Virus record (IMG/VR): IMGVR_UViG_3300016666_000042
Span: 1-36,931 of that record
Reading direction: 5' to 3' (one strand)
Origin: a virus
Taxonomy: Duplodnaviria > Caudoviricetes
DNA length: 36,931 bases
Part shown: positions 6,465 to 18,147 of the stretch, piece by piece
Layout: each line of letters starts with the position of its first letter
How positions within the stretch are numbered: the stretch's first letter is position 1
Program-made: the position numbers and the translations under genes
Notes under the pieces: generated by a model
What the model was told of the DNA's origin: nothing
Database searches by the model: none
Seen by the model: only the letters and a program-made list of their open reading frames with translations

Positions 6465-6655
6465 ATTTTTTTCTTAGCCTCTGCCATACTTGTTTCAAAC
6501 CACCATCCTACGCAAGCATTATCTAAATCTAGCCTTTTAACTGATTTTGCTCCATCTTGAAATCCTCGATGATATTCTTGATCCATCTTATCTACTTGAA
6601 CAACTGCTAATCCCCATAAAATAACCAAAATTCCTAGAGCAAATGCAATTTTCAT
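6452..6655 (-). CDS. Small membrane protein
   Basis: N-terminal TM helix, YHRGFQDG; ATGA-coupled. Confidence 0.6.
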   Translation of the reverse strand: MKIAFALGILVILWGLAVVQVDKMDQEYHRGFQDGAKSVKRLDLDNACVGWWFETSMAEAKKKICGK

Positions 6656-6840
6656 AGCAATTCCCTTATTTTTTTAACGGGTACATTAAATGATTCATGG
6701 ATACGCAAAATTACGTCTGGAGATACTACGCTACCATGTCTGATCTTGCTGATTGTTGCTGTACTCAAGCTAAGTGCATGAGCCAGAGATCGGTCATTTT
6801 TAATTCTGTATGTTTTAAGTATGTAATCTAATAGTTTCAT
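6652..6840 (-). CDS. Small Cro/XRE-type HTH protein
   Basis: NDRSLAHALSLSTATISKIRHG helix-turn-helix. Confidence 0.75.
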   Translation of the reverse strand: MKLLDYILKTYRIKNDRSLAHALSLSTATISKIRHGSVVSPDVILRIHESFNVPVKKIRELL

Positions 6841-6846
6841 ATTTTT

Positions 6847-7089
6847 TTAATCAAACATCCAAGAAGGTAATTTCCCGCTTACATATCTTTTTGCTGCATT
6901 TTTTCTTTGCGCTTTTTCTACATTCTCTACTGTTAATTTATTAAGCTGTTTATTTTCAGGAAATGCTATTTTTTTCCCATCTGTTTTTGCTCTTTCTTCC
7001 ATGCAATTACCATGAACAAACTCATACTTCCCTTTGCCTCTTGGTAATTTGCATATTGGACATGGATTGTAAATAGATTTTTTTTTCAT
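6847..7089 (-). CDS. Hypothetical protein with CxxC...HxxC zinc-binding motif
   Basis: CPIC...HGNC; GAGG RBS upstream. Confidence 0.6.
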   Translation of the reverse strand: MKKKSIYNPCPICKLPRGKGKYEFVHGNCMEERAKTDGKKIAFPENKQLNKLTVENVEKAQRKNAAKRYVSGKLPSWMFD

Positions 7090-7100
7090 AATATCCTCGT

Positions 7101-7183
7101 TAGTGCAGGGTCACTGGCGATTGGGAGTCGAAGGAGACAGCCAGCCCCTGCTGCCGGAGTTACGCGCCACTACCGGCTGGGCG
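7101..7183 (-). ncRNA. Candidate structured small RNA B: pseudoknot plus hairpin with anti-RBS loop
   Basis: Minus strand CGCC/GGCG and GCCGG/CCGGC crossing stems; then GCAGGG/CCCUGC and GCUGGC/GCCAGU enclosing loop UGUCUCCUUCGACUCCCAAUC; GC-rich island in AT-rich operon. Confidence 0.7.
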
Positions 7184-7187
7184 TGTT

Positions 7188-7257
7188 TGGTGAGGTACTC
7201 GCTGCGTCTGTTTGATCTGATAGCTTATAGGAACTATCACAGTATCCGCTTTCCCTC
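7188..7257 (-). ncRNA. Candidate structured small RNA A
   Basis: GAGG/CCUC closing stem followed by ACCA; GAAA/GAGUA internal loop; CUG/CAG stem; inner UGAUAG/CUAUCA hairpin. Confidence 0.65.
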
Positions 7258-7262
7258 GTAAC

Positions 7263-7511
7263 TTAAAACGGTATATCGTCTGGTGGCAAATCGTCTACAG
7301 GATCAGCCTTTTTCTTTGCTGGTTTATCGTCTTTTAGCTTAAAGCTGCAAGACATAAATTTCCCAGATTTACCTTCTTTAAGCCATGCAGATACCCAGAT
7401 TGCATTTCCATCTAAATCCTTGCCATCACCCTTGTAATCAGGGTGGTTATCTGCTTCTTTCTTGTCATTCTTAAACAAAGAAAATGATCCTGGTTTAGCT
7501 TCGTATGCCAT
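7263..7511 (-). CDS. SSB-like single-stranded DNA-binding protein
   Basis: SLFKN, HPDYKG, WVSAW, acidic tail ending DDIPF; adjacent to ERF. Confidence 0.72.
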   Translation of the reverse strand: MAYEAKPGSFSLFKNDKKEADNHPDYKGDGKDLDGNAIWVSAWLKEGKSGKFMSCSFKLKDDKPAKKKADPVDDLPPDDIPF

Positions 7512-8180
7512 TTATTTACCTTTCGCTTCTTCATTCATTGTTTTCAAAGTGCTACGACATTTACTGCTTAATTGCGCCCAAACTGCTGTTGATGCTGTTA
7601 CATCAAAAGTAGATTGATCTCGCAAATCCCATGCTTCAAATGCAGCCCATTCGTTACCGGCATCAAACTGCGCCTGAATGTGAGCTGCTAACTTGTCCAC
7701 CAAAGCCGCTAAACGGCTGTCTAAGGCTTCTTTTGCACCATCTGTAGCCGAGATAGTCTTTTTCTCTTTGAGAGGCTCAGAGGCGTCTATAGCGTCATGT
7801 TCGCATATTGCCAAAGCCATAACTAACAGATAGCGAGTAATGTAGGTAATGGATGCGCCAAGGTTCTGAACTGGATGGCAACCTTTTAGGTGCGCCTCAG
7901 CCATAGGGCAACAGAATTTAATTGCTCCACCGGTTTCCTTGTCATAAATCCACATTGTTGCCAGTTCTCTGTCAAATTCAAGAGTTTGGCAAAGTCCTAA
8001 ATCTAGGAAAATCTGGTTAACGGCTGGCAGGAAGTCTCCAAGCTCAAAATAACGGTATCCTGCAAACTTATTGTGACCTGACTTTTTAAGCTCCATAGAT
8101 TGCAGCTTGATCCGTGCAGTCTGTAACTTATCGTAAATCATCCATTGCTGCTGTTCTTGCTGCTCTTGTGCTTGTCTCAT
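7512..8180 (-). CDS. erf: ERF-family single-strand annealing recombinase
   Basis: KKSGHNKFAGYRYFELGD and QNLGASITYITRYLL...D motifs. Confidence 0.85.
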   Translation of the reverse strand: MRQAQEQQEQQQWMIYDKLQTARIKLQSMELKKSGHNKFAGYRYFELGDFLPAVNQIFLDLGLCQTLEFDRELATMWIYDKETGGAIKFCCPMAEAHLKGCHPVQNLGASITYITRYLLVMALAICEHDAIDASEPLKEKKTISATDGAKEALDSRLAALVDKLAAHIQAQFDAGNEWAAFEAWDLRDQSTFDVTASTAVWAQLSSKCRSTLKTMNEEAKGK

Positions 8181-8482: not shown

Positions 8483-8661
8483 TCTCTTTCGTCTCCTTCT
8501 ATCTCGTTAGCTAAAAAGTGGATTTCTTGTGTCGGCAATCTAAGTGCTTCATACGCCATCATCAGTACTTCTTGTTCGCTTTCATTTAAATCCCTACGCT
8601 CAAACTTATCTACCATTTCACGTAAGACATAAACCATTTCTGCTATTGCCCATTTATCCAT
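8479..8661 (-). CDS. Small acidic hypothetical protein
   Basis: GGGAG RBS; tightly packed in operon. Confidence 0.65.
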   Translation of the reverse strand: MDKWAIAEMVYVLREMVDKFERRDLNESEQEVLMMAYEALRLPTQEIHFLANEIEGDERE

Positions 8662-8894: not shown

Positions 8895-8931
8895 TTAAGA
8901 CTCCCAAGAAGTTGTTTAGTAGGTGAAACAG

Positions 8932-10807: not shown

Positions 10808-10904
10808 AGGAATGGCTAGGCTTGCTACCGAAAAGACGACTTCTCACCGTCCTGCCAATTCCTACCTTATGTGAGAGCCGAGGATGACAACCTCATGAGA
10901 AAGG
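10808..10904 (+). ncRNA. Candidate structured RNA C / leader upstream of the replication initiator
   Basis: AGGAAU/AUUCCU and GGC/GCC outer stem; GACG/CGUC hairpin with loop ACUUCUCAC; TATAAT at 10797-10802 just upstream. Confidence 0.55.
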
Positions 10905-16106: not shown

Positions 16107-16793
16107 ATGGAAGCTATAGTTATTTGCACAGTAGATAATCCTGGAATATCCATATTATTAGAATCAATCAGGATTTATGCGCCTAACATCCCTGTGTATC
16201 TATCTACTAATCACATTGAGCATTGCAGTAGCGATATTATTACTTTCCCAAATACCGCAAAGACATTTGGTGAGGCTTATAACAGTGCTATAGATCGTGC
16301 TTTTAAAGGCTCTTGGAATAGTGTCATTGTCTGTAATGACGATGTAGTGCTGACTCCTACAAGCTATAAGCAAATGTTAGAAGATTGGCAATTGCTACAT
16401 AAAAATAATATAAAGGTAGGGTTCTTGGGAGCCAGATCAGATTACGTCTTACCGGAACAAAATATCCGTTTTCCAGTAGAAAATGATAAAATAATTGCAT
16501 TGAAATACGAAAGTGAATCGTATATCAAAAGAGTAGGGATTATTGCGCCCATCTTTGCTTCCCTCAGTAAACAAGTATGGCAGGATGCGCGATTTCCACA
16601 CACAAATTGGTATTCTGATAACATAATATGCGATGATTTAACGAAGAAGGGCTATGAGCATTTTGTAAGCCGATCTTATGTGCATCACGCAGGAAGTCAG
16701 ACTGTAGGAACAGATTTTCAAAAGTGCCATGAAGAGCCTAGAGAATGGATAAAGGCTAACAGGCCGGACGTTTACGAGGTTTATTATGGCTGA
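16107..16793 (+). CDS. GT-A fold glycosyltransferase-like protein (GT2-like)
   Basis: FGEAYN, IVCNDDVVL, WYSDN, VHHAGSQT motifs. Confidence 0.75.
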   Translation: MEAIVICTVDNPGISILLESIRIYAPNIPVYLSTNHIEHCSSDIITFPNTAKTFGEAYNSAIDRAFKGSWNSVIVCNDDVVLTPTSYKQMLEDWQLLHKNNIKVGFLGARSDYVLPEQNIRFPVENDKIIALKYESESYIKRVGIIAPIFASLSKQVWQDARFPHTNWYSDNIICDDLTKKGYEHFVSRSYVHHAGSQTVGTDFQKCHEEPREWIKANRPDVYEVYYG

Positions 16794-18147
16794 TGGATTA
16801 TTAAGTAACGTACTAAATGCAATAGACCAGCAGAAAAGAGATACCGCTGCTAGTCTTGGCTTGCTGTTTACTGATCCACAGGCATGGCTGGTAAATGCAA
16901 ACGATAGGCTTAATGCTTACAATCAGACACAACTTGCTGCAATACCAGCAGAGCGCAATGAGCTGCGTGGCATTCCATTAACAAAAGAACAACAATTAGC
17001 AAAGCAATATGCAGATCAGCAGATGCAGGATTTGGCATTGGGATTTGCTGGAAATATTAAGCCTGTTAAACCTAGTCTAGGATTGGCTGGTACTCCTTAT
17101 CAAAGATCATTAGAGCAAGGATACGATCATGGTTGGTATCATGGGACAACTGGTGATATTAAGCAATTTAGACCTGATTTATTAGGTGAAGCTACTGGTG
17201 CAAAGAGCGCAGAAGAAGGCTTTTTCTTTGCAAGAGATCCTAGAAATCCACCTAAAGAAATGACAGGAAAGTCTAATAATCCTGAAACTATTGCATTACT
17301 TAAACGTCTTGGCAAAACAGACGAAGAAATAGCTGCAATGAATACAGTTTCAATGAAAGGGCATGGAGCGCACACAGCATCTGGATATGCACAACTTGGT
17401 GGTGATAGAGAATATAGAGAGGCCATGCGTCTTGCATCTATTGCAGAAAAGAAAGGTAACTGGCCTGAATATGAAAAGCAAAGTGCCATTGCTGAAAATT
17501 TAGCTATTGGCAAAAATAATCAGCTTCAACTATTAACAGCAAAACATGGAGAAGCTAGAGATACAATGTTATCTAAAATACAAGATACATGGTATGGCAA
17601 ACCAATGTCTCAAAAAGAGGCAGAAGCATCTGATGCTGCATTTAAAAAGTTAATGGGATATGGTTGGTATAACAATCCTGCTCAAGTTGATGTTGTAAAA
17701 AAAGAATTAGTTAATAAATTTGGTAAAGATAAAGCAGCAGATGCAATAAATGCAATTGACCATTATAAATCAGTTGTTGCTCAAAGATTGGCAGCGGAAG
17801 CACAAAGTGGTGCTAACGTACTTCCTGTTGCATTGAGGTATCAAAACCCAATGTATTATGATTTTAAGGGCAGTTCATATAGAGATCAGACTTATGCTGA
17901 TTTGGTAAAAGAGGCAAAAGCTAAAGGGCATGACGCATTGATTTTGCAAAACACTTATGATCCCGGCGCAGGAACAGCAAAACTTGTAGATGTTGGCGTA
18001 GTATTTAGTCCTGCTCAAATACGATCTAAGTTTGCTAAGTTTGATCCTAAAAATATAAATTCACCAGATATATTAGCTGCTGGTGTTCCATTAGGGCTAT
18101 TAGCAGATACAGAAATAGAAATGCCTAAAAAGAAACAAAAGAAGTAA
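16786..18147 (+). CDS. ADP-ribosyltransferase-fold protein (ART-PolyVal-like)
   Basis: WYHGT, GFFF, ASGYA, NVLPVALRYQNP, GHDALI, VVFSPAQIRSKFAKFDP in the expected order. Confidence 0.72.
   Translation: MADGLLSNVLNAIDQQKRDTAASLGLLFTDPQAWLVNANDRLNAYNQTQLAAIPAERNELRGIPLTKEQQLAKQYADQQMQDLALGFAGNIKPVKPSLGLAGTPYQRSLEQGYDHGWYHGTTGDIKQFRPDLLGEATGAKSAEEGFFFARDPRNPPKEMTGKSNNPETIALLKRLGKTDEEIAAMNTVSMKGHGAHTASGYAQLGGDREYREAMRLASIAEKKGNWPEYEKQSAIAENLAIGKNNQLQLLTAKHGEARDTMLSKIQDTWYGKPMSQKEAEASDAAFKKLMGYGWYNNPAQVDVVKKELVNKFGKDKAADAINAIDHYKSVVAQRLAAEAQSGANVLPVALRYQNPMYYDFKGSSYRDQTYADLVKEAKAKGHDALILQNTYDPGAGTAKLVDVGVVFSPAQIRSKFAKFDPKNINSPDILAAGVPLGLLADTEIEMPKKKQKK

Follow-up and report, generated by a model that had tools for sequence, protein, structure and literature searches.

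The phage locus and its structured gap

The window analyzed here is the whole 36,931-nucleotide (nt) stretch of the IMG/VR virus record IMGVR_UViG_3300016666_000042 (Caudoviricetes), a complete 36.9-kb record with direct terminal repeats. Its leftward operon runs on the minus strand from a promoter-like site (8960-8932) through small open reading frames (ORFs), erf and ssb to a 173-nt gap, followed by an ORF of 80 amino acids (aa) and a 62-aa helix-turn-helix (HTH) protein. The gap, at positions 7090-7262, is bordered by the gene of the small SSB (7263-7511, minus strand), whose stop codon lies 5 nt ahead of the first module, and by the 80-aa entry of the ORF list at its downstream border (6847-7089, minus strand). 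It contains a module, A (7257-7192), and a unit of two parts, B (7183-7153) and C (7151-7105). On balance and with considerable reserve, we favor the interpretation that the gap is the two-unit case of an RNA cassette array widespread among phages, with units that would be excised as payload-carrying small RNAs.

Module A, together with its trailer, occupies 7257-7188 on the minus strand. A closing stem of 4 base pairs (bp; 7257-7254/7195-7192) leads into a GAAA/GAGUA internal loop, which we take to be of the loop-E (bulged-G) type, then GC/GC pairs, a GGA bulge and a variable insert at about 7238-7211, and the unpaired trailer ACCA follows the stem at 7191-7188. Module B (7183-7153, minus strand) is an H-type pseudoknot with stem S1 formed by CGCC (7183-7180) and GGCG (7168-7165) and stem S2 formed by GCCGG..GU and AC..CCGGC. 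Module C (7151-7101 with its trailer, minus strand) is a 12-bp hairpin bearing a GA bulge, an invariant G-U pair, a 21-nt C/U-rich loop with anti-Shine-Dalgarno (anti-SD) tracts, and the trailer ACUA (7104-7101). In aligned copies, one base separates B from C.

A sequence-only reading had described a GC-rich gap filled by two folds joined by a short linker. The first part of this description held, as the GC content of the gap is 0.549 against 0.31-0.48 in nine neighboring 173-nt bins, and covariation is present in both A and B-C. Module A and a second unit do exist, but the second fold turned out to be a pseudoknot plus a hairpin rather than a single fold. The folding energy was not above chance, with z values of -0.54 for the whole gap, -1.4 for A, -1.35 for B and C together and -2.55 for C. 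We regard the folds as real because of covariation.

Compensatory changes in modules A, B and C

Relatives of module A were collected with two patterns from IMG/VR. The first, consisting of two constant arms, matched at least 119 stretches (set 1; about 370 estimated), and a looser one admitting longer inserts matched at least 120 (set 2; about 710 estimated). The family shares a layout of a 4-5-bp closing stem, the internal loop, two G-C pairs, the GGA bulge and a stem opening into a hypervariable insert. In set 2, where the closing stem lies outside the pattern (n=111), the stem covaries, with G-C in 61 copies, C-G in 36, U-G in 10, U-A in three and one mismatch at its innermost pair, and it is paired at 0.99 compared with 0.50 in shuffles. 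The alignment of 44 of the 68 candidate relatives, in which several inner pairs are fixed by the search pattern and hence uninformative, has 97.3% of its cells paired and two-sided changes at five of 12 pairs. Shuffled alignments equaled the count of two-sided pairs in 46 of 500 cases and the other four measures in none of 500. Furthermore, a covariance model built after removal of the window and of the two relatives nearest to it by insert recovered one window copy at 62.1 bits.

For unit B-C, we aligned 30 of the 55 distinct copies, picked for diversity and including the window. In this alignment 96.8% of the cells are paired and 12 of 24 pairs have two-sided changes, which none of 500 shuffles reached, while slid controls paired at only 28-54%. 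Two-sided changes within B fall on two of the four S1 pairs and three of the eight S2 pairs. A distant copy of B, accompanied by a hairpin (L658, 1500-1601, minus strand), has S1 swapped in a compensatory manner to CUCC/GGAG; as this copy lies between genes that look structural, B also occurs outside early operons. All three folds are supported by compensatory changes. Moreover, the invariant G-U pair, found in 30 of 30 copies, identifies B-C as a minus-strand RNA.

None of the modules matches a known Rfam family. Covariance-model searches of the gap and of 20 relative loci gave no match, and 20 further loci gave only tRNAs and one chance-level match. The C4 and c4-2 models found nothing at E<=1 in the window and the 20 loci or at E<=0.5 in the 20 additional loci. 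Models of self-cleaving ribozymes did not match the window or its relatives, with limited sensitivity for B as covariance models ignore pseudoknots. Neither ARAGORN nor RF00005 detected a tRNA in the window gap, and ARAGORN found none in six loci including that gap.

RNase P-type ends of module A

RNase P determinants include a 3' RCC, which pairs with the P15 loop, U at position -1 and A at -2 in B. subtilis (PMC4919922), and the same paper lists pre-4.5S RNA and 'phage-induced regulatory RNAs' among RNase P substrates. The window copy of A has G+1, C-1 and A-2 together with its ACCA trailer. The same features recur in sets 1 and 2, which do not overlap and in which the determinants sit at positions free of any search pattern. 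Among the 101 distinct cores of set 1, G+1 was found in 96, a pyrimidine at -1 in 85, A-2 in 48 and an unpaired RCC in 77. The corresponding numbers for set 2 are 91, 85, 51 and 78 of 95, this tally covering 95 of the 111 copies, with 11 nested in GUUGG stems and five with stems shorter than 3 bp set aside. C exceeds U at position -1 in both sets (57 versus 28 in set 1 and 62 versus 23 in set 2).

The RCC is tied to the end of the A stem, occurring at offset 0 in 78 of 95 copies and in 0-10 at other offsets. It is also independent of the stem sequence, following 36 of 49 stems without a G run (18 sequences). Judged by these positions, module A bears RNase P determinants, namely G+1 in a paired terminal stem, a pyrimidine at -1 and an unpaired 3' RCC. 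Of four 4.5S RNAs from betaproteobacterial genomes, two share with A the G+1 and the stem-ACC-UUU end, and the other two do not. In three loci (L028, L053 and L071), A stands directly after a nucleotidyltransferase gene (phrog_9528), a possible 3'-end enzyme.

Arrays, exchangeable inserts and distribution

The units are gained and lost in a modular fashion after ssb. In the 45 closest ssb loci, which were not dereplicated, B-C stands alone in 37 and is preceded by A or an A variant in seven, and one locus is cut off. Extra units occur in 32 of 65 B loci, and the arrays of relatives range from one to six units, with B as a single copy per array. In more distant ssb loci there is no unit, a single A or an A of 24 nt that lacks an insert. 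The prediction of modular, exchangeable structured RNAs after erf-ssb was thereby supported, as the survey of related phages found their number and inserts to vary.

The A-type scaffold carries more than 200 different inserts. A further scaffold, D (ACGCAUG...CAGYCGU), matched at least 120 stretches, with about 330 estimated, and nine 14-mers are common to the inserts of A and D compared with 0.1 in base shuffles, a lenient control. By inspection, the inserts hold loop sequences constant while their stems change. Some contain tRNA-like bodies with a D arm, a T arm and an altered or replaced anticodon arm, the scaffold taking the place of the acceptor stem. Two such bodies are within A (L583, 707-777, 30.0 bits; L554, 707-774, 27.7 bits) and one is in a third scaffold, with 83 nt replacing the anticodon arm (L477, 482-622, 40.9 bits). 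Another insert (L256, 2758-2866) looks tRNA-derived by eye and has a UUU anticodon-like loop, without an ARAGORN call. True tRNA genes lie within the same loci as units in L458 and L565.

Several side observations concern the arrays. D is followed by a GUUGGU.../...ACCAAC scaffold, and together the two make up long arrays in about 330 viral stretches (L413-L532); the insert families there are numerous, and alternative stems overlap. Inserts of L049, L071, L072, L076, L563 and L571 have hairpin loops ending in CACCA or similar, then a GA-rich strand, and may mimic the tRNA 3' end. A small cysteine-rich ORF ending in TTCC.G..C.T.C[FY] is often found at the border of arrays or within them (L020, L038, L056, L061, L068, L083, L125, L128, L129 and others).

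Module B was found in 31 cultured-phage records (27 Pseudomonas, three Ralstonia and one Cronobacter) and not in E. coli genomes. Pseudomonas phage F116 (L002, 2500-2592) has B and then an ACCA-ended hairpin in the leader that follows the repressor region, and its record carries no annotation of them. Module A had no blastn match in cultured phages, a search of lowered sensitivity for its split short arms. In GTDB genomes, the A pattern occurred in 57 stretches, many of which are chance matches lacking the closing stem; those with the stem are, by inspection, mostly from Betaproteobacteria, either in prophage-like settings or as a stand-alone unit in Comamonas. In the Comamonas loci L272, L278, L292 and L316, a C/U-rich tract and then an intrinsic terminator lie downstream of the stand-alone A, and the context is apparently non-phage. 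The models of A and of B-C each hit one of 150 Burkholderiales genomes, for A the seed genome, which rules out both as core host RNAs.

Proposed excision and the evidence against it

We propose that host tRNA-maturation enzymes likely excise the units from the early leftward message and so yield stable small RNAs. RNase P would cut at 7258/7257, and RNase E or exonucleases would trim the A/U-rich linker after the ACC, as in polycistronic tRNAs, where RNase E cuts just after CCA (PMC2190699). The expected products are A of about 70 nt and B-C of about 83 nt with the pseudoknot at its 5' end. Once released, the RNAs may act in trans through their inserts, the A insert most likely by engaging a host factor, be it as structural ligand or as decoy, and C most likely via its anti-SD loop, which here could dampen two upstream genes. 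Cutting by RNase P would in addition serve as punctuation in the message, separating ssb from the genes that follow.

A number of results weigh against this interpretation. The base after the RCC of A is variable (U in 58, C in 25 and A in 17 of 101), and we describe the A trailer as RCC without a CCA end because this base is mostly U. The rule used for trimming stems unpairs a terminal U-A in 20 of 95 copies; the untrimmed cases still have RCC in 64 of 75. Module C has G+1 in 30 of 30 copies but also A at -1 in 30 of 30, and its trailers are ACC in 17 and ACU in 17 of 45, the window copy having ACUA. The stem-trailer ends reported by the sequence-only reading are present, including an ACCU at 10864-10867 after the third element treated below, but ACUA is no NCCA end. 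Its proposal of RNase P processing kept its ground for module A, with an RNase P-type end in two sets, and lost it in part for C, with its A at -1. The signature for RNase P action on C is weak, and because of this we take B-C as one RNA.

Further points of the same kind concern the cargo. In 11 of 80 ssb loci, A is the 24-nt form without payload, and therefore the scaffold can serve without cargo. A strict T-arm pattern matched one of 236 inserts compared with 0.11 in shuffles, a count too small to be informative and for which we consider tRNA-like inserts a small minority. No cognate enrichment was detected for C loops against their own ribosome-binding sites in 34 sets (p 0.92), nor with 19 distinct loops (p 0.77), and a genome-wide test in 13 genomes gave p 0.087, or 0.16 without the window. 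Cognate-pairing tests have power, because the same kind of test clearly detected the cis target of the third element. The inserts of A (24) had no excess of antisense matches to their own genome (cognate minus non-cognate 0.07 +/- 0.18 nt). For host targets, two conserved insert loops taken from relatives matched 17 of 301 Burkholderiales genomes compared with 11 for the reversed control, and 45 of 301 compared with about 33 for the control, in a search that is weak because the host is not identified.

The 24 host match loci that were inspected had no gene in common. The most attractive host match, L389, was set aside, being antisense inside a large ORF. C loops tested against the 60 nt downstream gave p 0.79.

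We extend the interpretation tentatively, and would not give this wider form even odds, to a plug-in RNA arsenal of betaproteobacterial phages. In it, scaffolds cut by RNase P would display captured RNA domains, such as tRNA elbows and loops, anti-SD loops and antisense seeds, as decoys or regulators directed at host defenses and translation, and recombination at the conserved arms would shuffle the units from phage to phage.

Alternative explanations

Among the alternatives, the one that survives best, though we think it unlikely, is pure punctuation of the mRNA. The modules would then be processing or stability signals in cis (RNase P or RNase III sites, or exonuclease blocks) that set the levels of erf-ssb versus downstream genes, with inserts that are tolerated as largely neutral extensions of the stem. 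In 62 of the 76 loci that have an upstream ORF, no more than 15 nt separate a stop codon from the beginning of module A, and in 40 of 69 loci a start codon comes no more than 40 nt after the module, in line with such a signal. The insert-free A, the solitary B-C after ssb in most close relatives and the absence of detected targets for the inserts point in the same direction. T7-type RNase III processing hairpins are long near-continuous duplexes cut by RNase III; A has only short helices, and C is a 12-bp stem with one bulge. Punctuation does not account, however, for up to six different units per gap, more than one processing site needs, nor for inserts that keep loops while stems change, recur across scaffolds and include tRNA-like bodies.

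A less probable alternative, which we doubt as the main role, is autoregulation like that of c4 or CI RNA, in which excised B-C would pair with upstream ribosome-binding sites and shut early genes as a timer or for immunity. The C loop in the window contains two adjacent 9-nt tracts on the minus strand, GUCUCCUUC (7138-7130) and GACUCCCAA (7129-7121). The second is the perfect complement of 8899-8907 (minus strand), a candidate target where ribosomes would bind ahead of the first gene in the leftward direction (ATG 8894), and the first that of 8491-8499 (minus strand), a candidate target at the ribosome-binding site before ATG 8482, the start of a 36-aa ORF. This 18-nt loop core thus tiles two of its own ribosome-binding sites, and the double match of 9+9 exceeds all 342 of 342 non-cognate loop/operon pairings (maximum 15), with a duplex energy ranking first among 34 target sets. 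Single relatives also have 8-10-nt matches at upstream starts (L193, L197, L200, L223 and L233). Against this, nine-base matches to the C-loop tracts are common genome-wide (at least 35), and seven foreign C loops pair with the window sites more strongly than the own loop does. C loops are generically anti-SD, with CUCC or UCCU in 35 of 39 loops compared with 13.4 in shuffles, and by nature such loops pair with many sites.

The feedback on upstream genes that the earlier reading had envisaged finds its counterpart in the complementarity of the window C loop to two upstream ribosome-binding sites, but not in the relatives (p 0.77-0.92) or in the A inserts. Judged from this pairing, feedback in this phage is possible; it is not a conserved function of the family, because no cognate enrichment was found across relatives.

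Very unlikely in our view is that the modules, without being cut, serve antitermination or protein binding while part of the nascent transcript, as put/nut-like or SSB-linked elements, a reading in keeping with B in the leader of F116, with A following unrelated SSB families (12 of the 50 upstream ORFs submitted, in three PHROG groups, and a PF tail, typical of SSBs, ending 33 of 172 upstream ORFs) and with the lack of a minus-strand terminator in the cassette, but one that leaves the stem-sequence-independent pattern of RCC, G+1 and Y-1 and the tRNA-like inserts unexplained, most upstream genes being without an SSB label. The 50 ORFs submitted, from 76, also included 15 of other families and 23 without family.

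Relation to known systems

The c4 and CI RNAs are matured by RNase P, and, to our knowledge, only a handful of phage RNAs matured in this way are known, each single and fixed. Like c4 of P1/P7 (RF01695, c4-2) and CI of P4, the cassette RNAs lie within an early transcript of a phage and have a closed terminal stem. In contrast, c4 and CI are single copies with a three-way junction and two target-pairing loops, whereas the cassette combines the long irregular stem of A with the pseudoknot B and the single hairpin C, in arrays of exchangeable units without covarying cognate targets or an Rfam match. Module A also shares G+1, the pyrimidine at -1, the RCC trailer and A/U-rich linkers with polycistronic tRNA precursors and pre-4.5S RNA, and some loci contain tRNAs, but the units are neither tRNAs nor SRP RNAs and the fourth trailer base is not A. 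As far as its sequence features tell, the cassette is a variant of the phage RNAs matured by RNase P, and it apparently serves as a scaffold for payloads.

Two other phage systems invite comparison. The arrays of non-coding RNA linked to UG27 reverse transcriptases are likewise composed of structurally conserved, sequence-diverse phage units gained or lost singly (bioRxiv 10.64898/2026.09.22.753630), but the 60 window ORFs include no reverse transcriptase, and the cassette has several scaffolds with tRNA-type ends. LPR1/PreS of Lambda is also a small RNA of the early left operon and acts in trans on a host mRNA (bioRxiv 10.1101/2024.10.31.621285); it is of the Hfq type and ends in a terminator, whereas the cassette lacks one, and the search for host targets of its inserts found none. 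The STAXI motif is a pseudoknot RNA near ssb genes and sometimes near c4 RNAs (PMC2864571). We rejected module B as STAXI (RF01728), whose model matched neither the window nor five B-carrying records; STAXI is repeated and B is single.

No description of the cassette was found in the parts of the literature searched, including PMC10690425, PMC5737381 and PMC2864571, and six cassette motif strings were absent from the full texts searched. Single scaffolds may well figure among the 8,495 candidates of Fremin 2023, unnamed, because these were mined from the same collection.

One RNase P-type scaffold is estimated to occur in about 1,000 stretches of viral contigs (about 370 with one insert length and about 710 with another); it forms arrays together with other scaffolds and has tRNA genes nearby. 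Should the inserts have functions, the early regions would hold a large untapped catalog of RNA effectors, the RNA counterpart of the small accessory genes there, and the scaffold would be a natural one for expressing stable small RNAs. With B before an ACCA-ended hairpin in the cultured phage F116, processing is directly testable.

A separate RNA ahead of the replication gene

The third element, a three-way-junction RNA resembling int-alpA, lies at 10808-10867 on the plus strand, with its loop at 10839-10847 and the trailer ACCU. The segment 10809-10877 matched the int-alpA model (RF02996) over its full length at 34.5 bits (E 0.0013), 1.3 bits short of the cut-off of 35.8. Like int-alpA RNAs, it is upstream of a phage gene; it differs in scoring below the cut-off and in that the downstream gene here encodes an O-like replication protein. 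Two sites complementary to the loop follow within 10871-10903 (plus strand), at 10871-10876 and at 10896-10903, the latter at the ribosome-binding site of the replication gene (ATG 10911).

The element is found at the same place in 13 relatives, with an ACC trailer in five of 13, and across the relatives its loop complements one or two sites within the 70 nt that follow. Loop and sites covary, with cognate matches of 6.1 versus 4.3 nt, reached in none of 20,000 permutations with eight distinct loops. P4 CI RNA arises by processing and base-pairs with sites located on its own transcript (PMC4825925). On the covariation evidence, the third element follows this logic as a putative cis antisense ahead of a replication gene, and its likeness to int-alpA suggests that this family may work as cis antisense in the manner of CI. 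The grouping of this element with the cassette was therefore abandoned, as it is an int-alpA-like RNA with a loop covarying with sites just downstream, and its predicted control of replication is of a separate and largely known kind.

Operon and neighboring genes

The candidate leftward early promoter (8960-8932, minus strand) reads TTTACT-17-CATAAT, a consensus match only, with a site count not above that of shuffles. The gene of an Erf-family single-strand annealing protein, assigned by a family match, is located at 7512-8180 (minus strand). No intrinsic terminator, searched as a GC hairpin with a U tract, was found on the minus strand between 6000 and 11000, including the cassette.

The phage had been described as having no evident repressor. 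This was not borne out, as the 62-aa ORF at 6652-6840 (minus strand) encodes a Cro/CI-type HTH protein that exceeds the cut-offs of three Pfam models, Phage_CI_repr, HTH_3 and HTH_26. An HTH homologue stands immediately downstream of the cassette in most close relatives; a homologue search with the HTH protein returned one relative only.

The 60 ORFs scanned include a terminase, a portal, a capsid, the O-like replication protein and a helicase, and neither an integrase nor a reverse transcriptase was labeled among them. The nearest phage with a named host, judged by the capsid, is a Methylophilales phage at 52%. A 453-aa ORF at 16786-18147 (plus strand) has a weak match to ART-PolyVal, an ADP-ribosyltransferase, at 29.6 bits compared with the Pfam cut-off of 31.2.
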